64,000 bases of DNA. Origin: an uncultured Candidatus Poseidoniales archaeon. GTDB taxonomy: Archaea; Thermoplasmatota; Poseidoniia; Poseidoniales; Thalassarchaeaceae. Positions 1-12,014 of this stretch are shown here, piece after piece. Each line of letters starts with the position of its first letter. Within the stretch, counting starts at the first letter, position 1. The stretch covers positions 441 through 64,440 of the forward strand of contig CAZXZO010000007.1 of NCBI GenBank assembly GCA_964645485.1, written 5' to 3'. The notes beneath the pieces were generated by a model, which was given only the letters and a program-made list of their open reading frames with translations, searched no databases and was not told where the DNA came from. The translations under genes and the position numbers were made by a program.

Positions 1-3000
1 TGGCGGTCAGAATCTGGAGATTGGAAATTCCTCACTTTTGATTGGCCTCACAATCTTTCTGGCAATGGTGCAATCGTGATAGATGTAGATTGGCCAGATA
101 ATATTTACACCGATGTGGATGTAATTTGGATGTCGGAAAATGGCCATCCATATTCGTTAGAAGACCCGGTTGCTTATGGCCAATACAATTTAGTCCCAGA
201 AGTTTATTCAGAAAACAAGGATATGGGTTCAGGAAAATATCGGTGGCAAACTTCTACTGGGGGTAGCCATGAAATTTTGGTAGCAGATGCCACGCCTGGA
301 ATGAAACAGATGATGTTACATTCAATTCGTCACGGTGTGAACACCAATGATAATCCTCTGAATATTAGCGTAGGGCTAGTGAACGCAATCAATGGTTCAC
401 TGTCCAAAGTAGTGAGTGATTGGGCTGATGCAGACGGAGAGGAAGTCATTACAATTGGTGCTACTTTACCTCTAAATGTTTCATCAATTGAAGGATTTGG
501 TTGGACTCGCCCTGTATTACTTCCGTCAGAAACTGCTACTCAAGATACCCCAGGAAATTGGGGCTCTTCTGGATATTCTCACCAAATAGATGTACAGAAT
601 GCTGAACTTTTGAAAATTGAAATAGATTCATTGTCTCCTCGGACTGATTTGGATTTAGCCCTTTATCGAGATAAAAATAATAACGGTGTAATTGATTATG
701 GTAGTGAGCAAATTGATGTTAGTGGGAATTGGAATTCTGATGAGGAAATTCTCGTTGAATCGCCAACTTCGGGGACATGGTGGGCGGTAGTCCATGGATT
801 TGATGTCCCCAATGGCACAGCTTCTTTTTGGTTAAGAGAAACAATAATTGCTGGAGATTCCCTTTCTGTTGGGAATATTTCAACACTTAACTCCTCACAA
901 ATTAGTGCTAGATTTTCAAACGGAACCAGTGCTCTTGGAGGGATGGTTCCAGTCAGCGCTTTTGATGTAAATATCAGTTACGAAATGCCTGAAATGGCAG
1001 GGAATTGGCAAGGTTTTCTTGTTGTTAATTTAGATTCAGGCGGTTCTATACGGCTAAGTTATGATTACCAATTAGATGAATTGGTTCCAATTTTGGACTT
1101 CATAACTCCCCTCAATTTAACGAGAACAAATCAATCAATCCCTCTGAGTTTAGAAGCCCATGATTTTGGTAGCGGTTTCAATTTATCTTCATTGAAACTC
1201 GATACTCAACCCCAAGTAGATTGGAATAATGCATCATTTACTCTTGAGGCAATTTCTGAAAGGGGAGGTGATTCGACTGATTATGCCGAATCTTGGATGC
1301 ATTGGAATACTGCAATTAATAAATCTCTAGGCTCTCATTACCGCGAATCATCGGGATTAGTAATTATTGAGGCTGAGAATCCTACCTCGACTGCCGATGG
1401 TTCAGATCCTTCAGCACCATCTTGGCGATTAGAACCCTCATCAAATTCCAGTCTAAACAATTTCTTGACTACTGATAGTGATACTGGTTGGAGTGCAACA
1501 AATACCGATTCCGGGCCTCGATTGGATTACTCTATAGATTTCAACACCACGGGTACGTTTTATCTTTGGATTAGAATGAAGGCACCTGATGTTGATGGTA
1601 ATGCGGTTCATATTGGAATTAACGGCTCCGCTATTACTTCTGTTCCTGATGGAATGTATACTAATACATTTGATAGTTGGGAATGGACTAATATGGCATT
1701 GGATGGGAGTCAATCAAACCCAGTCCAGTTTGAGATAACTAATCCAGGGGTACATACAATCAACATTTGGGCTTCGAAGGATGGCGTTGCAATAGATGAA
1801 TTATTGTTAACAGATTCATGGAGTTCCACTCCAATGAATGTTGTAACGTCACAATCACCCATTGTTGACTTGACCTTACGTTCTGCTTGGTTAAATCTAT
1901 CACTCCCGGAGGATAATGGATGGAGGACTTTCTCAGCAGAAGTAATCGATGTTGCTCGAAGAGAAAACACCTCTAATTTGATGGTCGAATTTGATGATTT
2001 AGCACCTCCAATTATAATTTCAGGCTGGAATTTCTTATCCAATACTTCGATAATGCCGATTAATGTTCAAACTGATATCGGCAGCCAATTATGGCTGAAT
2101 GGTTCTCTCATAGAAATCAATGAAACAGGGTTTGGCGAAATTGAGTTAGTCCATCACCCATCTTATTGGGTTAATGGAAACGGAGACCCAATGAACGCTA
2201 CAACTTGGAATTGGGCTGATTTAAACAATTTTGTAATCACTGCTAAAGACTTGGCTGGCAATTGGAATAACCGAGAGTTTGAGGTGGCATATGATGGCTG
2301 GGGTGCACATAATAATGGACCGGAACCACAAATTATCCTAGCAAGTTATTCGGGTATTTCTGATGGTGATTTTTGGTCAGTTGAAGGACTACTGCCCCCT
2401 GACCGACTAAACGCCAAGCAGACGCCATTACGAGTGAATGTAGATGCCTACTTCGATACTAAGCAAGTTTGTGCTTACTTCATTGATGAAGATGGAGTTG
2501 AACAGACTTCATCTTGCCTATCAAAATCCTCGCCTCCATGGGGTTCAAACGATTCTAATCATATGCGTCAAGGCGCGCCTCTCCCTCCATCAAACATTCA
2601 TATCCCCTTTTCAATAGAGGTAAACCATTCAGGAATCAATGATGGTCGATGGCAAATATTTGTTGAAACTTTAGACTGGGCTGGAAACTGGGGTTGGGAG
2701 AACTTTACTTTGTTGATAGACAGAACGGCACCAGAAATTGAATGGATTTCACCCTTAGATAATTCTACAATTTGGAATCATAAATTGCCAATTAAATGGA
2801 ATATTTCAGAAATATCTGATCAATCTCTTGTGGTTGATGGTGTAGTTGTGGAAGATTTTTCGTCTGGAGATTTAACTATGGATACTGAAGTCACATTATC
2901 TGAAACAGGTTGGCACCAACTGTGTGTCCTCGCTTCTGATTTGAGTATTGGACCTTCAGCAAATGTGGTGACTGATTGTATTGATATTTACTTAACTCCG

Positions 3001-4188
3001 GAGGCTTATGAGCCAACCGTCACAGCAACTTGGGATGGTAGCTTACTGAATGATTCAAACCAATTTGTAGATTTGCATATCGGTCCAGAACAAGGTTGGT
3101 CTCTACAAATTTGGGATGGTTCCTCTTGGGTAATTCAGAATGGGTCTGAACTCTCAAGTGGTGACTTAATCGTGAGTGTTGTATTACAAGAAGGTAACAA
3201 TTCTCTGAAATTTGAGGTAGAAGCATTGGAGAAAATGTACGTTTTTGAGTTGTCTGCAATTCTTGACAGCCGTCCACCCCACCTAACAATTTCTTCACCA
3301 ATAAATGGATTTTCAATCCCGTTTATGCAGTGGAACGTAACAGGTGAGTGTGAAGTTGGATTAACTGTTGTAATTCAATTGGCTTCGGGGTCAAACTATT
3401 CAACAGAATGTAATTTCGAAGGTGAATATTTTGCATTAGTAGATTTCTTAGGTGGTGAAGGTTTTGAAACAATAACTGTCCAAAGTTGGGATAATGCTGA
3501 GAATTTAGCAGTGTCGTCTCATACTATTTTGATAGACAGAACTGCTCCTCAAGCAATTCTGCAATGGATAAAGCCAGGCTGCGATGTACAGCCTGTTTCA
3601 ACTGTATTCGACCCTAGTCCAAAACCATCTTGTGTTCTTGTCTTGAGAGCAGATTTCCTTGACCCAGATATTGCCTTTTGGTCAATATCTATTGAGAAGG
3701 ATAGGCAATTTATAACCTCACAAATGGGTGGTCATTCCCAATCAAACGTTGTTATTATTGATCTAGGGGATGAAGGTAGTCCAGGTACTTGGAGTGCTGA
3801 ATTGATAGTTGAGGATGCGGCAGGAAATCGCCAAATTTATTCTTTGGATGATGTATTTGTCTCACAAGAATCTACTTTATCCTCACGGGCTTCAACACCT
3901 GGTTCCTTTGCGAATATCTCCTTATTTGTATTGACTTTAGTTGCTTACATGATTATTCGAAATAGGAGACGCCAAATTGATGACCCTTGGCAAAGCCAGA
4001 TGCCTACTCCACTAGACCCTGAATTATTACTCGATGAAGAGGAAGATAGTGCCGATGAATTAGAGTTGGATGAACTTTCAATTCCTTCAAGCCATGGTCC
4101 AGTTGGGGGACCTCCTTCTAGTGAAGAAGAGATGGCAATTGCGGATGCGACAATTTTGCAAAAAGTCAAGGATAACAAGAACAAATAG
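1..4188 (+). CDS. Giant cell-surface protein, 5' end outside the window (PPC-type domain, lectin/CBM-like module, stacked Ig-like modules, C-terminal TM anchor plus acidic tail)
   Basis: Frame 1 has no stop from base 1 to the GTG at 76, so the gene enters from upstream; stop TAG at 4186-4188. PPC-like segment HQIDVQNAELLKIEIDSLSPRTDLDLALYRD...GTWWAVVHGFD. Lectin-like segment GTFYLWIRMKAPDVDGNAVHIGINGS...WEWTN. Repeated module openers DDLAPPIIISG, LIDRTAPEIEWISP, LDSRPPHLTISSP, LIDRTAPQAILQW. TM FANISLFVLTLVAYMII followed by RNRRRQ. More than 20 N-x-S/T sequons counted by eye in the first ~750 aa. Confidence 0.85.
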   Translation, partial: WRSESGDWKFLTFDWPHNLSGNGAIVIDVDWPDNIYTDVDVIWMSENGHPYSLEDPVAYGQYNLVPEVYSENKDMGSGKYRWQTSTGGSHEILVADATPGMKQMMLHSIRHGVNTNDNPLNISVGLVNAINGSLSKVVSDWADADGEEVITIGATLPLNVSSIEGFGWTRPVLLPSETATQDTPGNWGSSGYSHQIDVQNAELLKIEIDSLSPRTDLDLALYRDKNNNGVIDYGSEQIDVSGNWNSDEEILVESPTSGTWWAVVHGFDVPNGTASFWLRETIIAGDSLSVGNISTLNSSQISARFSNGTSALGGMVPVSAFDVNISYEMPEMAGNWQGFLVVNLDSGGSIRLSYDYQLDELVPILDFITPLNLTRTNQSIPLSLEAHDFGSGFNLSSLKLDTQPQVDWNNASFTLEAISERGGDSTDYAESWMHWNTAINKSLGSHYRESSGLVIIEAENPTSTADGSDPSAPSWRLEPSSNSSLNNFLTTDSDTGWSATNTDSGPRLDYSIDFNTTGTFYLWIRMKAPDVDGNAVHIGINGSAITSVPDGMYTNTFDSWEWTNMALDGSQSNPVQFEITNPGVHTINIWASKDGVAIDELLLTDSWSSTPMNVVTSQSPIVDLTLRSAWLNLSLPEDNGWRTFSAEVIDVARRENTSNLMVEFDDLAPPIIISGWNFLSNTSIMPINVQTDIGSQLWLNGSLIEINETGFGEIELVHHPSYWVNGNGDPMNATTWNWADLNNFVITAKDLAGNWNNREFEVAYDGWGAHNNGPEPQIILASYSGISDGDFWSVEGLLPPDRLNAKQTPLRVNVDAYFDTKQVCAYFIDEDGVEQTSSCLSKSSPPWGSNDSNHMRQGAPLPPSNIHIPFSIEVNHSGINDGRWQIFVETLDWAGNWGWENFTLLIDRTAPEIEWISPLDNSTIWNHKLPIKWNISEISDQSLVVDGVVVEDFSSGDLTMDTEVTLSETGWHQLCVLASDLSIGPSANVVTDCIDIYLTPEAYEPTVTATWDGSLLNDSNQFVDLHIGPEQGWSLQIWDGSSWVIQNGSELSSGDLIVSVVLQEGNNSLKFEVEALEKMYVFELSAILDSRPPHLTISSPINGFSIPFMQWNVTGECEVGLTVVIQLASGSNYSTECNFEGEYFALVDFLGGEGFETITVQSWDNAENLAVSSHTILIDRTAPQAILQWIKPGCDVQPVSTVFDPSPKPSCVLVLRADFLDPDIAFWSISIEKDRQFITSQMGGHSQSNVVIIDLGDEGSPGTWSAELIVEDAAGNRQIYSLDDVFVSQESTLSSRASTPGSFANISLFVLTLVAYMIIRNRRRQIDDPWQSQMPTPLDPELLLDEEEDSADELELDELSIPSSHGPVGGPPSSEEEMAIADATILQKVKDNKNK

Positions 4189-4204: not shown

Positions 4205-7200
4205 ATGAAAATATGGGGAGTGGCCATGAGAAAGCAAAGAAGGTCTGCGGTCTTTACATCACTTTTGATGTTGTCATCCATCCTGACTGTTGGATTGGCA
4301 GCAGGATTAGATGGAGATAATGATGGAATTGATGACGCCGTTGATGATTGTCCATACGCCTGGGGCAATAGCAGTATAGATTTCACAGGTTGCCCAGATT
4401 CTGATGGGGATGGAAATCCCGATACAGTCGGTGCATGGGAAGGTGATTGGACAGAATCTAGCAGGTCACTATACGACAATTCTGGTTCATCTAGAGCCAT
4501 AGCGTGGGCATCCGACTCAGTTCACCTAGTCGGTAGCGGTGGAGGAAATGTAATCCTTTACAATGGCGCAGGTGCTAAAATATCTACACTGGTGTCGATT
4601 AGTGAAAACGTCAGAAGTTTAGATTTCACTGCAAACGACTCCTATCTGGCTGTTAGCGGATATTACGATAATTCTCAGAACCATGCATGGGTTCTGGTTT
4701 TAGAAATGGATTGGCCAACAAAAACCGCAACTGTAATCCAAAATCTAAGTTCCCAACATTCAGGTGACGTCTTTGCAGTCGAATGGTCAAATAATGGGGA
4801 CTATCTCTACACCGCTGGTGCTGATAACCTAATCAGAAAATTCGCCACGAATAATTGGACATTGGTTGATAGTTATAGCCGGTTAGACCAAATTTACAAC
4901 ATTGCAATTAGTCCAGATGACCGATTAATAGCAAGTGTGCATGGTTACGAAGTCTCCGTGTTTTGGACAAGTAATGGTACTGTATTTTTTAATCATGTAA
5001 ATCATTCTGGAATTACTCTCGCAGTAGCATTTAGTCCAGACGGTAAATGGGTGGTGACAGGTTCAGATGATACTTGGATTCATGTCTACAACACAACTAG
5101 TGGGAACCGACACACAGGTTGGGATGCTGGTTCTAGGGATATTAATCAAATTTCATTTGACCCAACTGGAAGCTTTTTTGTAGTTGCAAATGATGGTTAT
5201 AGTGGATATGTTTACCAAACAAGTGATTGGACCTACATCGATAATTTTGGGAGTTTTGGCACCTCTAACCAAAATCGCGGAACAAGGGCAGTGGAGTGGT
5301 CTCCTGATGGTTTGAAGATTGGTTTCGGCCAAAATAGAGGTAGGACAGCGGTTTACATTTTACCGGAGGGCCATCATCAACTGAAAGGCGATGTCACATC
5401 ACAATTGATGCTCAACCGTTGGAGATACAACTATCTGATGGAAGGTAAGCCATTATCACAAGAAAACCAAACAACCTCACAAATGACTCAAAATCTATGT
5501 AATGGGGAGGACATCATAGGTGCTAATTATTCGTTCAAAGAGAACCTTGCTAATCCCTTTGCAAATTATTCAACTTCCGGGCTGTTAGACTGCACATCCA
5601 CAAATAGAGAATTGTTAGAAGTTCCAATCGGCAGAATGCCTGCATCTTTCTTTGTTAAATCAGGTGGTCAGGCAGAAGCTTGTCTAAAGAGAATTGGAGG
5701 GCTGTCAATGGCCCAATTGAGGTATTTGGTTTCAGATGCTAGTGTTTCAACATTGGCTCAACCTGGATGGGCACCCGGTATGATCTGGGCGAGCATCGTT
5801 CCAAACGACGACTCTGACGGCGTGAAGGAATGGAGTGATTTCGACTCCTCCTGTCCTCAAGAAGGAATACACGTTTACCAAAGATGGGATAACCGTTCAG
5901 TTCCGATGATGATTGGGCGTCTCCTGACTTGTGCAGGTTGTCAATTTGAAGAGGATTTCTTTTCTAGTACGAGTTCACGCTACAGATTCACTGAACAAAC
6001 AAGGAGTGACATACTTTACGCAGTATCTCAAAATGATGAATCAATTGGATTTACCGAAATGAGGGCTGCAGAAAATTATTCTGGAATTTGGATAGTGCCT
6101 ATCGCTGATAATTGGACGCATAGTGCAAAAGACCACATCGCTGCCGGCGGAGTCACAATTTCACCCTCATTTGACAACAGTTCTAACGGAACTTATCCTG
6201 TACAATCCGACTACAACTTCATTCTGAACCGCGCTCAACAAGATGATCGGATGATGTTGATGAATTGGATGTTAAGTGATGCTGGTCAGAATGAGTGGGA
6301 TAGTATGGGTTTTGTCCGACTTGGGATTCTCGCAAGAGTAGATGCTTGGGCCAGATTGGGTGTTGATGCAACCGCTCTTCTCCCAGATACTGATGGTGAT
6401 GAAATATGGGATGGTGACGATGACTGTCCTGGTACTTGGACTGGATGGCAAGTTGATGCTGTGGGTTGTGCCCAACACCAAATTGATTCCGATGGTGACG
6501 GATACTACAATCATGAAGATGATTGTGTAAACGTTAGTGGTTCATCACTATGGCCAGAACTAGGTTGTATCGATTCAGACGGTGATGGCTGGACCAATTC
6601 TTCAGATAGTTTCCCATCCGACTTTAGTCAATGGGCTGACAATGATAGTGATGGTTATGGGGATAATTTATCGGGGTTGAATGCGGATGATTGCCCTCTT
6701 TTCGCTGGTAATTCTACCAATGATAGACTTGGTTGTGCAGACACTGACGGTGATGGTTGGTCAGATGAAGATGGCGATTGGAGCCTAACTGATGGCGCTG
6801 ACCACTTTCCTAATGATGCCACTCAATGGCGAGATAGTGATGGTGATGGATACGGTGACAATTACTCATTCACTATTGATGAATCTGGTTTGAGAATTCA
6901 AAATGGAGACGCGTTTGATGATGACATCACTCAATGGTCTGACCGCGATGGAGATGGCTTTGGCGACAATGGTATTGGCCAAGCGAGTGACGACTGTCCA
7001 GATGCTGCCGGAACCTCAATGGTTGACAGCGTAGGCTGCCCTGATGATGATGGCGATGGTTACTCAAATACTGCTGATATGTTTCCCAATGAGGTGACAC
7101 AATGGTTCGACACCGATGCCGATGGTTATGGTGATAATTGGGCAGGCGCTAATCCTGACCAATGTGTTGAGACACCATCATTTGAAGTGCCTTACGTTAA

Positions 7201-8110
7201 CGAAGATGGTTGTGGTCCATCAGAAAGAGATTCAGATTCAGATGGTATAATGGATGATATAGACCAATGCCCCTCAACCCCGATTGATCAAGCTGCTTTT
7301 GTAAATATGAATGGTTGCTCAGAAGCAGAAAGTGATGATGATGGAGATGGTGTTTACAACACTATAGACGGCCCAGATGGAATTTACAAGGATGATGCAA
7401 CACAATCAGCAGATAGTGATGGAGACGGCTTCGGAGACAACCCCAACGGGACGGACGGAGACGCTTGTCCTCAAATGCATGGGACTTCCGACAAAGACCG
7501 CCGCGGTTGCCTTGATAGTGATGGTGATGGATACAGTGACCCTGGTGGCGGCTGGGGCATATCTGACGGAGCCGATGCTTGGAAAAATGAGGCAACACAA
7601 TGGTCAGATTTTGATGGTGACGGATATTATGATAATTATGACAATCCTGCTTGGACCGCTTCTCGAGAAGAGGGATGGCCCGGAAAATATGTTGCTGGTG
7701 CTAGAATTGGGGATAAGTGTCCATTGAACGCCTCTGATTCGGCATATCCTGACCCGGGGTGTCCTACAAAACAAGGTACAATCTTAGATTATGGGAATTC
7801 AGATGCATCTGATGGTGGTCTTCCAATAATGCTAATCGTAATCATATTCTTAATTACTTCTGGAATAGTTGGTTTAGTAGTTGCAATTGTTATGAAACAG
7901 CAGAAGCCAAAGAAAAAGAAAAAATCAAGCCAACGTTCACAACAATCGGTGACAGTAGATTCCGCACTTAGTGGGGAGGCTCTAGAACCACCACATTGGG
8001 AAATCCAAGGTGTTGTGGGGGATGATGGGTTTGAGTGGCTTGAATGGCCTGAACAAAGTGATGTCTGGTGGTTCAGAGAAGAGAGTGGCTATTGGGCTCA
8101 ATGGGAATGA
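4205..8110 (+). CDS. Giant membrane-anchored surface protein: signal/anchor, WD40 beta-propeller, PstS-like periplasmic-binding-protein domain, thrombospondin type-3-like Ca-binding repeat array, TM, Lys-run and Trp/acidic tail
   Basis: Start moved from the ORF-track 4070 to ATG 4205 (MKIWGVAMRKQRRSAVFTSLLMLSSILTVGLAAG, signal-like; ATG 4226 also possible). WD40-like blades: VFAVEWSNNGDYLYTAGADNLIRKF, LAVAFSPDGKWVVTGSDDTWIHVYN, INQISFDPTGSFFVVANDG, AVEWSPDGLKIGFG. PBP-like: LSMAQLRYLVSD...IHVYQRWDNRSV...ESIGFTEM...GTYPVQSDYNFILNR...NWMLSDAGQ...GFVRL. D-x-D-x-DG repeats. TM LPIMLIVIIFLITSGIVGLVVAIVM followed by KQQKPKKKKK. Confidence 0.85.
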   Translation: MKIWGVAMRKQRRSAVFTSLLMLSSILTVGLAAGLDGDNDGIDDAVDDCPYAWGNSSIDFTGCPDSDGDGNPDTVGAWEGDWTESSRSLYDNSGSSRAIAWASDSVHLVGSGGGNVILYNGAGAKISTLVSISENVRSLDFTANDSYLAVSGYYDNSQNHAWVLVLEMDWPTKTATVIQNLSSQHSGDVFAVEWSNNGDYLYTAGADNLIRKFATNNWTLVDSYSRLDQIYNIAISPDDRLIASVHGYEVSVFWTSNGTVFFNHVNHSGITLAVAFSPDGKWVVTGSDDTWIHVYNTTSGNRHTGWDAGSRDINQISFDPTGSFFVVANDGYSGYVYQTSDWTYIDNFGSFGTSNQNRGTRAVEWSPDGLKIGFGQNRGRTAVYILPEGHHQLKGDVTSQLMLNRWRYNYLMEGKPLSQENQTTSQMTQNLCNGEDIIGANYSFKENLANPFANYSTSGLLDCTSTNRELLEVPIGRMPASFFVKSGGQAEACLKRIGGLSMAQLRYLVSDASVSTLAQPGWAPGMIWASIVPNDDSDGVKEWSDFDSSCPQEGIHVYQRWDNRSVPMMIGRLLTCAGCQFEEDFFSSTSSRYRFTEQTRSDILYAVSQNDESIGFTEMRAAENYSGIWIVPIADNWTHSAKDHIAAGGVTISPSFDNSSNGTYPVQSDYNFILNRAQQDDRMMLMNWMLSDAGQNEWDSMGFVRLGILARVDAWARLGVDATALLPDTDGDEIWDGDDDCPGTWTGWQVDAVGCAQHQIDSDGDGYYNHEDDCVNVSGSSLWPELGCIDSDGDGWTNSSDSFPSDFSQWADNDSDGYGDNLSGLNADDCPLFAGNSTNDRLGCADTDGDGWSDEDGDWSLTDGADHFPNDATQWRDSDGDGYGDNYSFTIDESGLRIQNGDAFDDDITQWSDRDGDGFGDNGIGQASDDCPDAAGTSMVDSVGCPDDDGDGYSNTADMFPNEVTQWFDTDADGYGDNWAGANPDQCVETPSFEVPYVNEDGCGPSERDSDSDGIMDDIDQCPSTPIDQAAFVNMNGCSEAESDDDGDGVYNTIDGPDGIYKDDATQSADSDGDGFGDNPNGTDGDACPQMHGTSDKDRRGCLDSDGDGYSDPGGGWGISDGADAWKNEATQWSDFDGDGYYDNYDNPAWTASREEGWPGKYVAGARIGDKCPLNASDSAYPDPGCPTKQGTILDYGNSDASDGGLPIMLIVIIFLITSGIVGLVVAIVMKQQKPKKKKKSSQRSQQSVTVDSALSGEALEPPHWEIQGVVGDDGFEWLEWPEQSDVWWFREESGYWAQWE
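6386..7643 (+). repeat. Coding array of 14 thrombospondin type-3-like calcium-binding repeats (DxDxDGxxDxxD, often DSDGDGYGDN, with DDCP...GC spacers)
   Basis: Units read in the translation: DTDGDE, DSDGDGY, DSDGDGW, DNDSDGYGD, DTDGDGW, DSDGDGYGD, DRDGDGFGD, DDDGDGY, DTDADGYGD, DSDSDGI, DDDGDGV, DSDGDGFGD, DSDGDGY, DFDGDGY. Two further units lie near the N-terminus (4310-4430). The gatggtgatgg motif recurs at DNA level. Confidence 0.8.
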
Positions 8111-8147
8111 TGCCAACCGCTATCAATAACTCCTCTCTCGACTAACT

Positions 8148-8996
8148 ATGGGAATTGCGAAGATAGCGGTATTAGGTGCCGGCCAAATGGGCAATGGGAT
8201 TGCTCAGGTTGCTGCATGCGCGGGGTATCAAGTAGTTATGATAGACATAAAACAAGATTTTGTTGATAGAGGATTGGAAAGTATTGAGAACTCACTTGCG
8301 AAGTTAGTTTCAAAGCAACGAATGACACAAGAACAGGCAGATTCAGCCCGGGCAAATATTTCAATTTCTACAGACAAAAATTCTGCGGCAGATGTAGACC
8401 TTGTAGTAGAGGCGATTCCAGAAATCCCAGACCTGAAATTCTCAACATTTGAAGAATTAGATAATATCTGTAAACCAGAAACAATTCTTGCAAGCAATAC
8501 TAGCAGTATCAGCATAGATGAGATTGCGGCTGCAACCAGCCGCCCAAACAAAGTCATCGGAATGCATTTCATGAATCCGGTACCAATTATGAAATTGGTG
8601 GAAGTTATCACAGGTTCAAAAACAGATGAAGAAGTATCTTCTTTGGTGGTAGAAGCAGCTGAAAGAATGGGCAAAATTGCATTGTGTTGTAAAGATTCAC
8701 CGGGATTCATCTCAAACAGATTGTTATGCCCGATGCTAAATGAAGCAGTTCTAACTCTTCAAGAAGGGATTGCTGAGCCTGAGGCAATTGATGGAATTAT
8801 GAAATTAGGAATGAACCACCCTATCGGGCCACTTGCCCTATGTGATTTGATTGGGCTTGACACAGTTCTTCACATTATGACAGTACTTCATGAGGGGTTC
8901 GGGGATGACAAATATGCTCCCGCCGATTTGCTAAAACAAATGGTAGAGCAAGGAAAACTTGGTCGTAAAAGTGGTGAAGGATTCTACTCCTATTAA
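8148..8996 (+). CDS. hbd: 3-hydroxybutyryl-CoA / 3-hydroxyacyl-CoA dehydrogenase (NAD-binding)
   Basis: N-terminal Rossmann KIAVLGAGQMGNGIAQVAA; NTSSISI; GMHFMNPVPIMKLVEV; PGFISNRLL; GMNHPIGPLALCDLIGLD; length 282 aa. Confidence 0.92.
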   Translation: MGIAKIAVLGAGQMGNGIAQVAACAGYQVVMIDIKQDFVDRGLESIENSLAKLVSKQRMTQEQADSARANISISTDKNSAADVDLVVEAIPEIPDLKFSTFEELDNICKPETILASNTSSISIDEIAAATSRPNKVIGMHFMNPVPIMKLVEVITGSKTDEEVSSLVVEAAERMGKIALCCKDSPGFISNRLLCPMLNEAVLTLQEGIAEPEAIDGIMKLGMNHPIGPLALCDLIGLDTVLHIMTVLHEGFGDDKYAPADLLKQMVEQGKLGRKSGEGFYSY

Positions 8997-9108
8997 TGAC
9001 GAATTATGGTGTCCCGCACAAATAATGTCTTCTTCTTCATACTCAAAATAGCATTCCCTTGAGGCAATTATGATAAGAGGGCACTACGGGGTGCCCTTTG
9101 GAATAGTT

Positions 9109-9495
9109 ATGGCAGGCACAGAGAAGGTTGAAATTCGGACACTGAAAGTTGGGCGATACTGCACTGTTGATGATAGCGCCTACAAGATTCTTAAAATTTC
9201 AAAGTCTAAGCCAGGGAAGCACGGAAGCGCAAAGGCTAGACTAGATTTAGAAGACCTATTTACTGGTTCAAAGAGAAGCCACGTTGGTACGGTTACAGAC
9301 AAAATTAGTGTTCCAATCATTGAGAAAGGTTCAGCAACAGTTACTCATGTTCAAGGAGCCGATGTTCACGCTATGGATGCAAAAACATTCGAAATGATGG
9401 TTTTACCAATGGAAGATGGATTGAATATTGAATCTGGTGGAGAAATCATGTGGATGGAAGCATTGGGTCGATTTAGAATCATCCGCGACCATTGA
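9109..9495 (+). CDS. eif5a: Translation initiation factor 5A (aIF5A)
   Basis: Hypusine-site motif SKSKPGKHGSAKARL. Start moved to ATG 9109 (MAGTEKVEIRTLKVGRY), which matches the usual archaeal N-terminus; the ORF-track start at 9070 adds 13 atypical residues. Confidence 0.9.
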   Translation: MAGTEKVEIRTLKVGRYCTVDDSAYKILKISKSKPGKHGSAKARLDLEDLFTGSKRSHVGTVTDKISVPIIEKGSATVTHVQGADVHAMDAKTFEMMVLPMEDGLNIESGGEIMWMEALGRFRIIRDH

Positions 9496-9498
9496 GGC

Positions 9499-9547
9499 TA
9501 TCTTCTTTTTAGAGGAATTGATTTGAAGGTGGTTGGGTTCGACCACC
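9499..9547 (+). terminator. Probable aIF5A terminator: oligo-T run (9506-9510) plus GGTGG/CCACC hairpin (9528-9547)
   Basis: tcttcttttt lies directly after stop 9493-9495. 5-bp inverted repeat ggtgg...ccacc with a 10-nt loop. Archaeal terminators are typically T-tracts. Confidence 0.35.
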
Positions 9548-9572
9548 ATAGATACGGAGCGGGGGTGTAGAA

Positions 9573-12014
9573 TTGTCAGTAAAACGTTCAGCATACAGGC
9601 AGCCCGCTACAGCAGAAGGACTGAAGGCAATTGAGGATGGGACTTTAACTTGGCTTGACCAAGAGATGTATAAAAATCTCAACACAGGTGTCTTAGAACA
9701 ATATCTTGAGGAGAAAAATCTCGAAGAGGCGTTTGAAGTAAGTCATTGGTCACTTGGGAAAGTAATGATTGGAATTTTGGTTGGTGCTGTTTTCAGTGGG
9801 GTAACCGCATACATTGGGTTGAAAATTGGGTTGGCAGTTTCTGCGGCTTGGTATATCGCTTACTTACTCGGGATGTCATTACGCTGGTCGCCATCTGAAG
9901 TGAATATCGCCACAAGTGCTACCACCGGAGCAACCCATGCATCTACGGGGTTCATTTTCACGTTTCCAGCAATATTTTTGTTAGCCTCTAGTCCTAATTA
10001 TGAGGTAGGTGGAGGCCATTTAATCAGTAGTGTTGATACATTCCAGTTGGCTTTTATCGGAATAATTGCATCCATGTTTGCTGGATTTTTAGGTGTGATG
10101 TATTTTATCATTTTTAGAAGGGTTTGGCTAGTAGAAGATCCCTTACCTATGCCTGGGTTTGAGGCCACTCTTGTACTACTGGATATTGCTTGTGACGTGT
10201 CTAGTGGGGCTGCAGAACAAGCAAAAGAGTCTCTGAAAACTGTTGGGCTTTCTACCGTTGGCACGATGCTGTTCATGTTCATCATTGATTATCCATTATC
10301 GTGGAAGCGTCATTTAGATGGGGTTTCAGCATCTTTATTTGATGTAATCGCGCAAAAGTTGACTTTTGCTGGAACAGCATTGTCCTCAATTTTCAGCCAT
10401 CATGCTATCCATCAGCCAGCCGGAATTCACACAGTAGAAGGCGAGCACGGTACTTGGGAAGGTGTTTCAAAAGGTATCACCCATTACGATGAAGATAAAT
10501 TCAATCCATTTGAGTATACATATCTGGGGATTGAAATGTCACCTACTCTCTTTGCAATTGGTTGGTTCATGCGCCTGAGGGTGGCAATCTTAGTGAACCT
10601 AGGCACTTTAGTTGCGTGGTTTTACCTAGTTCCTCTTGCAGTGAGTCTTGATGTTCCAGTGTATGATGCTAATCTTGGTGCGTACTTCAAATTGTCAGAT
10701 TTTGGTAATCCAGAAACTGTGCCTTACACTCCACTAGTTCAGATGAAGGTTTATTCGACATTAATTCGAGTGATTGCAATTGGTGCAATTCTTGGTGGTG
10801 GGTTCCTTGGTTTGGCTAAGATGGCTCCTACATTCGTCAATATTTTTGGCGATATTAAAAACGCGTTCAAGGGAGAACAAGGTGCAGAATACATGGAAGA
10901 AAAGGGATGGTATGAATGGCCTCTTTACCATCTTCCGATTTTCATAATAATTTCTTTCATTGCCATGACGTTCATCTTTACAATTGGTGGATTCCCTTTT
11001 ATTCCAAGCCTTCTCTTTTCAATAATTGTTGGGATTTCAACATTCTTACTCGGTGCTATCGCAGTTCGTGTAATGGGTGAAACGGGTATTGAGCCCGTCA
11101 GTGGAACTTCATTCATTGTTTTACTAGGACTGTTAGGTTTATTCCTGAATTTAAGAGATACTTTTGGCTTGACTAAGGAAGAAGCAATCTTGTTGGGTCT
11201 TGTAGGTACTACAGTGTTTGGTTCTGCAATCTCAATGTCAGGGACTGTTGTTGGGGACTACAAAAACAGCCTGTATATAGGAAACAGGCCTTATCACATC
11301 TCAAAAGGAAATATCATGGGTGTTGTGCCTGGTGCAATCCTAGGTGCGGGTGTTGCAATTTTCCTTTCAAAGATGCTAGCTGATGGAAGTATAGATTTAC
11401 TCGCTCCACAAGCAAATGCATTTGCTACCTTTACGATTTTATTATCGGAGAATGAAGGTAATCTATACGCATTAGGTTTAGGATTCTTGCTTGGTTGTTT
11501 CATCGAATGGGCAACCGGAATGGGAACCTCCTTCGGCCTAGGTATGTATCTACCTACTTTGGCAACCTTCCCCATGCTAATTGGCGGAGGTTTGAGAGAT
11601 TGGTGGGAGGCTAAGAGGCTCGCACCTAAGGTCGAAAAAATCCGGGAAGAAGGAGGCAACAAAGAAGCAGAAAGAACACGTGCAATCATGTTGCTTGGTA
11701 CGTTCATGCTTGCTGCAGGGATGCTAACCGGTGAAGCCTTCATCGGTGTAGAAAGCGCAGTATTTGCAGTAGTTGATGAATTACCAACTGGCGAATCTGT
11801 GCCAATTTTAGATGGTGAAACACCGGTATTGGACCCAGATGGAAACCCAGTCATGGGTGAACAAGTATTGGGTGATCTTGGTTGGTATCCTTATGCAAGA
11901 TTTGCCTCATTTTTAGGAATGAATTTATTCTTAGGATTAGGAATCTATTTGTTATTCAGGAAGGCTGGAATTATTGGCCCGAAAGATGAACTTTTGGAAG
12001 CCGAATTAGAGTGA
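9573..12014 (+). CDS. OPT-family oligopeptide transporter (polytopic membrane protein)
   Basis: 813 aa with many TM segments; SPSEVNIATSATTGATHASTGFIFTFPA and the C-terminal LAAGMLTGEAFIGV resemble OPT-superfamily signatures. TTG start as in the ORF track. Confidence 0.75.
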   Translation: MSVKRSAYRQPATAEGLKAIEDGTLTWLDQEMYKNLNTGVLEQYLEEKNLEEAFEVSHWSLGKVMIGILVGAVFSGVTAYIGLKIGLAVSAAWYIAYLLGMSLRWSPSEVNIATSATTGATHASTGFIFTFPAIFLLASSPNYEVGGGHLISSVDTFQLAFIGIIASMFAGFLGVMYFIIFRRVWLVEDPLPMPGFEATLVLLDIACDVSSGAAEQAKESLKTVGLSTVGTMLFMFIIDYPLSWKRHLDGVSASLFDVIAQKLTFAGTALSSIFSHHAIHQPAGIHTVEGEHGTWEGVSKGITHYDEDKFNPFEYTYLGIEMSPTLFAIGWFMRLRVAILVNLGTLVAWFYLVPLAVSLDVPVYDANLGAYFKLSDFGNPETVPYTPLVQMKVYSTLIRVIAIGAILGGGFLGLAKMAPTFVNIFGDIKNAFKGEQGAEYMEEKGWYEWPLYHLPIFIIISFIAMTFIFTIGGFPFIPSLLFSIIVGISTFLLGAIAVRVMGETGIEPVSGTSFIVLLGLLGLFLNLRDTFGLTKEEAILLGLVGTTVFGSAISMSGTVVGDYKNSLYIGNRPYHISKGNIMGVVPGAILGAGVAIFLSKMLADGSIDLLAPQANAFATFTILLSENEGNLYALGLGFLLGCFIEWATGMGTSFGLGMYLPTLATFPMLIGGGLRDWWEAKRLAPKVEKIREEGGNKEAERTRAIMLLGTFMLAAGMLTGEAFIGVESAVFAVVDELPTGESVPILDGETPVLDPDGNPVMGEQVLGDLGWYPYARFASFLGMNLFLGLGIYLLFRKAGIIGPKDELLEAELE

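Follow-up and report, generated by a model that had tools for sequence, protein, structure and literature searches.

The gene and the layout of its product

The window examined here is a stretch of 64,000 nucleotides from an uncultured Candidatus Poseidoniales archaeon of the Thalassarchaeaceae (assembly GCA_964645485.1, contig CAZXZO010000007.1), and the gene of interest within it lies at 4205..8110 on the + strand, as do all of the features of the gene described below. The ORF and its homologues would indicate that its product is a type I membrane surface glycoprotein, in which a WD40 propeller is joined to a domain that appears to derive from the phosphate-binding protein PstS, the two being carried on an acidic, repetitive stalk. 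An initial annotation of this DNA, made from the sequence, had proposed an anchored surface protein of 1301 aa with a signal or anchor, two thrombospondin type 3 (TSP3) units, about seven WD40-like blades, a PstS-like segment, 14 further TSP3 units, a transmembrane helix, and a cytoplasmic tail. That order of domains has been borne out, with profile and fold evidence behind each of the three domain assignments, and the same architecture is conserved in relatives across the Poseidoniales.

On translation, 4205-8110 is one stop-free open reading frame (ORF) of 1301 aa, to which the residue numbers used here refer. The upstream stop codon (4186-4188) is followed by two in-frame ATG codons, at 4205 and 4226. 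Of these the second (residue 8) is the more probable start, because the N-termini of the homologues are short basic n-regions that match from residue 8 (MRKQRR...); this choice removes 7 residues and leaves a protein of 1294 aa. A third in-frame ATG at 4070 would lengthen the protein, but the ORF would then run into the preceding gene, whose end is at 4188.

The predicted signal peptide (4205..4303) has a basic n-region, a hydrophobic segment at residues 14-33 in the hydropathy profile, and a small-residue site ahead of [AVL]DGDxDG; comparison of the N-termini shows sites of the VSA|VDGDGDG type in the homologues. Near the other end is a single strong transmembrane helix, residues 1206-1229 (7820..7891), with a Kyte-Doolittle mean of up to 3.05 over 19 residues and a run of Lys after it. 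It is preceded by a membrane-proximal segment (7685..7819) containing a Cys pair, the columns of which are conserved in the alignment. With a signal peptide, a C-terminal transmembrane helix, and the extracellular hallmarks described below, the protein is by prediction a type I single-pass membrane protein, in keeping with the anchored surface protein first proposed.

The WD40 propeller and its junction with the second domain

The region 4460..5359 (residues ~86-385) encodes a seven-bladed WD40 β-propeller, as judged from Pfam, the PDB, AlphaFold2, and Foldseek. Pfam family PF00400 (WD40) is matched at 60.4 bits, where the cut-off is 27, many other WD40-propeller families match too, and the best sequence match in the PDB is a WD40 protein of Nostoc (2ymu, E 9.6e-50). 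The whole head, residues 34-728 (695 aa, two domains), was modelled with AlphaFold2 from an alignment of 22 sequences, giving a pLDDT of 88.0 and a pTM of 0.79. In this model there are 28 strands at head-model residues 53-352, which make up seven four-stranded blades, and Foldseek aligns the propeller with seven-bladed WD40 structures at TM-scores of 0.83-0.90 with root-mean-square deviations of 2.3-2.6 Å. By its Pfam score, which exceeds the threshold, and its modelled closed propeller of four-stranded blades, this is a member of the WD40 family, and the initial count of about seven blades agrees with the Pfam score, the 28 strands, and the TM-scores of up to 0.90.

No more than 5 residues after the final strand of the propeller (model residues 348-352), a periplasmic binding protein (PBP) fold begins with its first strand. 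Because the second fold starts so close to the last blade strand, the modelled head is without a linker, and the pTM of 0.79 for a construct of two domains suggests that the propeller and the PBP domain are held in a fixed arrangement. The sole entry among the Foldseek matches in the PDB that has both a WD40 and a PBP fold is an engineered fusion of MBP and RACK1 (3dm0). The only stretch of the head modelled with low confidence (pLDDT ~40) is residues 445-459 (5537-5581), which bears the invariant sequon Asn454-Tyr-Ser and would fit a flexible, glycosylated loop.

The PstS-type middle domain

The second domain of the head occupies 5369..6382 (residues ~389-726), which is wider than the segment 5600-6340 to which it had initially been assigned. 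With its six invariant Cys and one NDDxDG loop, it is a PstS-derived type II PBP domain in which the phosphate loops have been replaced. The Pfam family PBP_like_2 (PF12849) aligns with residues 421-692 at 26.3 bits for the domain alone and 22.6 bits within the whole protein, against a gathering threshold of 27. Eight of the 24 family members match PBP_like_2 by themselves, the best with an E-value of 8e-8. An AlphaFold2 model of residues 385-730 has a pLDDT of 88.3 and a pTM of 0.86, and when it is compared with the PDB by Foldseek all of the entries ranked 1-41 are PstS or phosphate-binding proteins; 4jwo gives the best match (E 4.8e-15), and the TM-scores against 4jwo and 1twy are 0.72-0.76. 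The modelled fold is thus of the type II PBP kind and closest to PstS structures.

Profile searches lead in the same direction. A hidden Markov model (HMM) of the domain was run against a set of 1.84 billion representative proteins, of which just 235 match at E < 1e-3. Those that lie outside the stalked-protein family of the Marine Group II archaea (MGII) match PBP_like_2 at 58-221 bits, often with 2-5 tandem domains. The family profile is linked to these proteins at E-values of 1e-68 to 1e-23. Together with the model and the Foldseek ranks, these links uphold the PstS/PBP-like-2 assignment. The initial annotation had allowed that profiles might fail to support the PBP-like and WD40 assignments, or that the middle region might prove to be another propeller or a lectin; neither was the case.

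Comparison of the middle domain with solved structures by sequence only is not informative. Single-sequence and profile HMM searches against PDB sequences gave weak matches (E 0.14-0.7), mostly to PstS and ModA, and the matches to methylisocitrate lyase in a further search with a single member were due to chance. An hhalign comparison of the family profile with E. coli PstS alone has a probability of 0.7%, and was used just for the register of loop 4. A stand-alone PstS near to this domain (P0053) is encoded on a contig of 1.5 kb.

A likely source for the domain is found within the same order. Positions 5379-11242 of locus L073, on the Poseidoniaceae contig JADHSC010000024.1, are of the pst type: a tandem PBP_like_2 lipoprotein (110 bits, lipobox LAGC) is encoded there, and divergently from it a MazE/AbrB-PhoU regulator together with two ABC permeases. 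The BPD_transp_1 permeases of this locus are unusually long, at 450 and 585 aa, and this type of PstS contains six Cys, with an NNDDDG loop as an insertion in its fold. The lipoprotein and the middle domain of the stalked protein have in common the six Cys, the LSMAQLRWI helix, and the insertion NNDDDGVREWSDLDSSC. The shared pattern of the insertion is PNxDDDG-x-x-EWSDL-x-x-x-C, itself a DxDxDG-like loop, and a segment N-x-T-H-G-x-x-D is likewise common to both. On this sequence evidence, the middle domain is a paralogue of the lineage's own type of PstS. This would be a clear and datable exaptation, in which the PstS receptor of a transporter has become a surface module outside transport while the ancestral type persists in the same order.

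The same Cys-rich subtype of PstS is also seen in five eukaryotic-looking proteins (P0081, P0049, P0105, P0109, and P0121), one of which has an Ephrin_rec_like domain; among the others are some with mucin-like Thr/Pro tails and some with tandem PstS domains on a type I transmembrane anchor. A marine PstS subfamily may thus be common to protists and MGII, if the guess that these proteins are eukaryotic is right.

The state of the phosphate site

To compare the phosphate loops, 31 family members were aligned by MAFFT with the PstS of E. coli and of the Poseidoniaceae. The E. coli sequence used is what we take to be the reference sequence, and the known numbering of its ligand residues checks out. 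In loop 1, the position of E. coli A9, which is Ser in the MGII PstS, is Asp or Glu in 29 of the 31 members, and T10 is replaced by Val, His, Ile, or Tyr. The Gly-rich loop 2 (GGGSxG) is N-x-[TS] in two clades, and in the third its residues are unrelated. The family also lacks the DMSR loop found in PstS of the MGII type. In loop 4, S139-G140-T141 are replaced by [RK]-[ST]-[VID] with an invariant Asn before them, which creates an N-x-S/T sequon; the family motif here is Arg-Trp-Asp-Asn-[RK]-[ST]. All of GSST, GGGSGAG, DMSR, and SGT are kept by the PstS of the L073 locus.

What is left of the site is in loop 4, where Arg560 and Asp562 align with Arg135 and Asp137 of E. coli PstS, with equivalents in 27 (Arg) and 29 (Asp) of the 31 members. 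The initial reading had placed RWDNRSV where R-x-SGT would be expected. The alignment does place it at the R-x-D-G-S-G-T loop, of which the Arg and Asp alone are kept. Of the phosphate ligands (T10, S38, D56, R135, S139, G140, and T141 in E. coli, or GSST, GSGxG, SR, and SGT as motifs), equivalents were found only of R135, together with D137. The proposed check on whether the anion-binding residues are retained has therefore come out mostly negative, as only one of the four phosphate loops of PstS survives, in remodelled form, and the other three have been replaced. The domain is a PstS-derived fold with a remodelled pocket, and not a recognisable phosphate binder. Because GSST, GGGSxG, DMSR, and SGT are replaced, and because loop 1 carries an acidic residue and loop 4 a sequon, we are fairly confident that canonical phosphate binding is unlikely.

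The middle domain is not decaying but under purifying selection: its mean pairwise identity in the family, 0.47, is higher than the 0.42 of the WD40 propeller. All parts of the ectodomain are conserved to a similar degree.

It is improbable, in our estimate, that the middle domain still binds an anion (phosphate, a phosphoester, sulfate, or similar) and that the protein is a trap on the cell surface by which dissolved or particulate matter that contains phosphorus is concentrated near the cell, acting independently of a separate Pst transporter or feeding one. Such a trap could call upon a fold that is unambiguously PstS-like by Foldseek, the alignment of Arg560-x-Asp562 with Arg135-x-Asp137, a Thr kept at the F11 position and a Ser or Thr at the N-terminus of the loop 4 helix, and three helices whose N-termini are predicted by AlphaFold2 to face the cleft; roles beyond transport have also been documented for cell-surface PstS proteins (PMC2242829). 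It has to contend with the absence here of the Gly-rich loop 2, SGT, and DMSR that are present in the true PstS of the lineage, with a conserved Asp or Glu in place of the loop 1 Ser that would disfavour an anion, and with the invariant sequon in loop 4. Nor are any pst genes (pstC, pstA, pstB, phoU) beside the gene in the neighbourhoods examined.

The stalk and the cytoplasmic tail

Two TSP3-like DxDxDG units with a Cys pair (4304..4459) lie between the signal peptide and the propeller, with motifs at residues 36 and 65 and invariant Asp, Gly, and Cys columns. The stalk proper (6383..7684) follows the middle domain and has 13 strict and one degenerate DxDxDG units, 14 Cys, and 26% Asp plus Glu. 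The strict motifs, 15 in total, are those at residues 36 and 65 and 13 between residues 761 and 1135; the degenerate unit, DTDGDE, is at residue 727. The array of units extends over residues 727-1140 with a spacing of 22-40 aa.

The description as two plus 14 TSP3 units therefore holds for the count, with the N-terminal pair and the 13 strict and one degenerate units of the stalk, but not for the family, as matches to Pfam TSP_3 (PF02412) reach 17.0 and 17.9 bits, the latter for the N-terminal units, against a threshold of 25. The units are tandem DxDxDG-x-x-D calcium-loop motifs with interspersed Cys, which at the level of the motif justifies the term TSP3-like. The only relative of the stalk with a solved structure is the TSP3-repeat, OmpA-family protein 5wtl of Capnocytophaga gingivalis (E 4.4e-4), and the NCBIfam model of the PA1041 anchor (NF053612) matches the stalk in four stretches. 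This acidic, Cys-rich DxDxDG array of ~430 residues may form a stalk that is stiffened by calcium.

In the clade of P0016 and P0019 (L005:10001-14137 and L032), the propeller and PstS-derived head are kept, and the stalk is made up of a different acidic repeat, of the DHDGDGC-x-D-x-x-EDDDDDGDG type; an M28 peptidase and a rotamase are upstream.

Beyond the membrane is a cytoplasmic tail of ~70 aa (7892..8107), with a Trp-rich motif in its final ~39 aa (7991-8107). When the tails are compared side by side, this motif, D-x-G-x-EW...WW[YF]R...W, is kept in all clades of the family, and a regular-expression search of all six frames found it nowhere else in the window. By eye it is like a WW-type hairpin. 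Five tails searched against Pfam at E-values of up to 10 gave no match, and assignment as a WW domain was dropped.

The conservation of these C-terminal residues in all clades could be taken to indicate a transmembrane sensor, in which closure of the PstS domain on a ligand is relayed through the transmembrane helix to the Trp-rich module, which recruits a signalling partner. Venus-flytrap folds, as those of PBPs are known, do widely serve as the sensor domains of receptors. With a repeat stalk of ~480 residues keeping the head away from the membrane, however, such a conformational relay is implausible, the tail of ~70 aa has no catalytic or known signalling domain in Pfam, and there are no signalling genes in the neighbourhood; we regard a sensor as very unlikely.

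Distribution, glycosylation, and transcription

The full-length homologues fall into 31 clusters, with lengths of 1272-1378 aa. When one genome of each species was scanned, 67 loci were found, every one of them in the Poseidoniales and together covering both the Thalassarchaeaceae and the Poseidoniaceae, mostly with one per genome; three weaker matches in the scan are to a different gene. The ectodomain contains 23 N-x-S/T sequons, against 11.4 ± 3.0 in composition-matched shuffles (z ~3.9), and those at Asn257, Asn454, Asn563, and Asn636 are present in 29 of 29 full-length homologues. The Cys pairs are likewise invariant across the family in the alignment. The protein is by these hallmarks a predicted extracellular glycoprotein.

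Three marine metatranscriptome runs yielded contigs that match the gene with 99-100% identity, for example over 329 nt with 0 differences and over 386 nt with 1 difference. On this evidence the gene is probably transcribed in situ.

The order-wide distribution of the gene, mostly at a single locus per genome and in a core syntenic position, its presence in three metatranscriptomes, the strong enrichment in sequons with four of them invariant, and the similar conservation of all parts of the ectodomain might also be expected of a mainly structural envelope protein, S-layer-like or part of a glycocalyx, in which the WD40 and PstS-derived domains serve as lattice or spacing elements. To our knowledge no S-layer gene has been identified in MGII. 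There is no evidence of lattice formation, and a conserved cytoplasmic Trp-rich module and two folds of the interaction type would better suit a receptor or adhesin, which makes a structural role unlikely.

Genomic neighbourhood

Ending 16 nt ahead of the gene, on the same strand, is a coding sequence that enters the window incomplete (1..4188) and encodes the C-terminal 1395 aa of an S8 subtilase with a full length of ~2400 aa. The part within the window matches Pfam GH115_C and Big_13, and the full-length orthologues (2367-2415 aa) carry Peptidase_S8. The C-terminus of this S8 giant (3898-4188) has a Ser/Thr linker, PGSF, a transmembrane helix, RNRRRQ, and an acidic tail of ~65 aa; a motif of the protein, IPSSHGPVG-x-PP, is kept in the orthologue at locus L001.

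Adjacency was surveyed by tblastn of the neighbouring proteins against the 67 loci. The S8 giant is directly upstream and on the same strand in ~30 of the 32 informative Thalassarchaeaceae-like loci with at least 41% identity, and at L001 there is an overlap of 4 nt between its gene and the one described here. Three Poseidoniaceae loci (L062, L064, and L070) are exceptions within their family in having it adjacent. At L004, a fragment upstream that was considered as a possible S8 C-terminus is 3-hydroxyacyl-CoA dehydrogenase. Downstream, the genes for aIF5A, OPT, EamA, and SurE are syntenic in nearly all of the 67 loci; that for the OPT-family oligopeptide transporter is at 9573-12014, ~1.5 kb from the gene. 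The position of the S8 giant suggests linkage between the two proteins, and is not proof of it.

Proposed function

Marine Group II are among the most abundant planktonic archaea and are uncultured, and they are presumed to feed on proteins and peptides. We know of no account of how they contact and process high-molecular-weight substrate. The features described here would be consistent with a stalked surface protein made up of a WD40-PstS head, a DxDxDG stalk, a transmembrane helix, and a Trp-rich tail, which works beside the S8 giant, a proposal that seems to us evenly poised between right and wrong. The head would be a binding module for a macromolecular ligand or for a small ligand other than phosphate, with a pocket marked by the conserved Asp or Glu of loop 1 and the Arg-Trp-Asp-Asn-[RK]-[ST] of loop 4. 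The protein as a whole may then be an adhesin, a substrate-capture protein, or a scaffold subunit, and not the receptor of an ABC transporter; a role in capture or adhesion, as had been suggested at the outset, is plausible. In the Thalassarchaeaceae lineage it would act next to the membrane-anchored S8 giant encoded just upstream, and the Trp-rich tail may dock an intracellular partner.

Several observations sit less easily with this proposal. The S8 giant is not adjacent in most Poseidoniaceae, where 3HCDH is upstream instead, nor in the P0016 clade. The region, including aIF5A, OPT, SurE, and SRP54, is syntenic order-wide, and therefore the adjacency may mean conserved gene order and not function. 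With regard to the pocket, the retention of Arg560 and Asp562 and of the helix N-termini would allow an anion site of altered geometry, and the alignment of loop 3 to E. coli PstS is unreliable. Metatranscriptome contigs, for their part, can contain DNA that has been carried over.

A bolder version of the proposal, and a long shot, is that a duplicated PstS, stripped of its phosphate site and welded to a WD40 propeller, has become a new Venus-flytrap/propeller receptor head on a calcium stalk. Its remodelled Asp/Glu and Arg pocket would recognise the termini of peptides or amino acids or another zwitterionic ligand, and in a surface complex with the 2400-aa S8 protease it would capture proteins or particles, the products of which would pass to the nearby OPT transporter. 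If this were true, it would be a dedicated archaeal machine for cell-surface proteolysis behind the scavenging of ocean protein by MGII.

A protein family that is conserved order-wide, transcribed, and found beside a giant extracellular protease in one of the order's two families is a concrete candidate for the binding step at the cell surface. The head, at ~690 aa and with a confident model, offers a well-delimited construct with which to screen ligands and determine a structure.

Comparison with known systems

It has been proposed that the 'thrombospondin' genes of MGII encode adhesins (Rinke et al. 2019, PMC6461757), and extracellular S8 subtilisins are described in all MGII metagenome-assembled genomes, at 1-4 per genome (Orellana et al. 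2019, PMC6864105). In the passages on these and related keywords, the two papers make no mention of WD40, of a WD40 and PstS head, of PstS exaptation, or of a pairing with S8, and a literature search on Poseidoniales and WD40 returned nothing relevant. As far as those passages go, the TSP3-type adhesion candidates and S8 subtilisins are of the same lineage, and the former are stalked surface proteins similar to the one described here.

The propeller resembles those of PkwA from Thermomonospora (5yzv), RACK1, WDR5, and the Nostoc protein 2ymu, the likeness being that of the Pfam score, the 28 strands, and the range of TM-scores given above. Unlike these, it is predicted to be extracellular, is rich in N-glycosylation sequons, and leads into a PBP fold with no linker in between. 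The stalk has in common with the TSP3 repeats of 5wtl and of the PA1041 anchor lipoprotein that DxDxDG-x-x-D units alternate with Cys spacers; unlike in those proteins, the array is without an OmpA or peptidoglycan-binding domain and is placed between a head and an archaeal transmembrane anchor.

For the middle domain, the likeness to the L073 PstS and to PF12849 takes in the two-lobe type II PBP fold, the six Cys, LSMAQLRWI, NDDxDG-x-x-EWSDL-x-x-x-C, and N-x-T-H-G-x-x-D. Unlike the L073 PstS, it sits between a propeller and a repeat stalk in an anchored protein of 1301 aa, and unlike the PstS genes of pst loci, the gene that encodes it is not beside pstC, pstA, and phoU.

The nearest parallel for the whole arrangement may be tetrabrachion of Staphylothermus marinus, a membrane-anchored stalk glycoprotein that forms an S-layer and has the subtilisin-type protease STABLE bound to it. 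Tetrabrachion is a coiled coil with no relation in sequence or fold to the protein described here, for which the association with a protease is put forward from gene adjacency alone. The likeness would be that, in both, an anchored archaeal stalk glycoprotein is associated with a protease of the subtilisin family at the cell surface.

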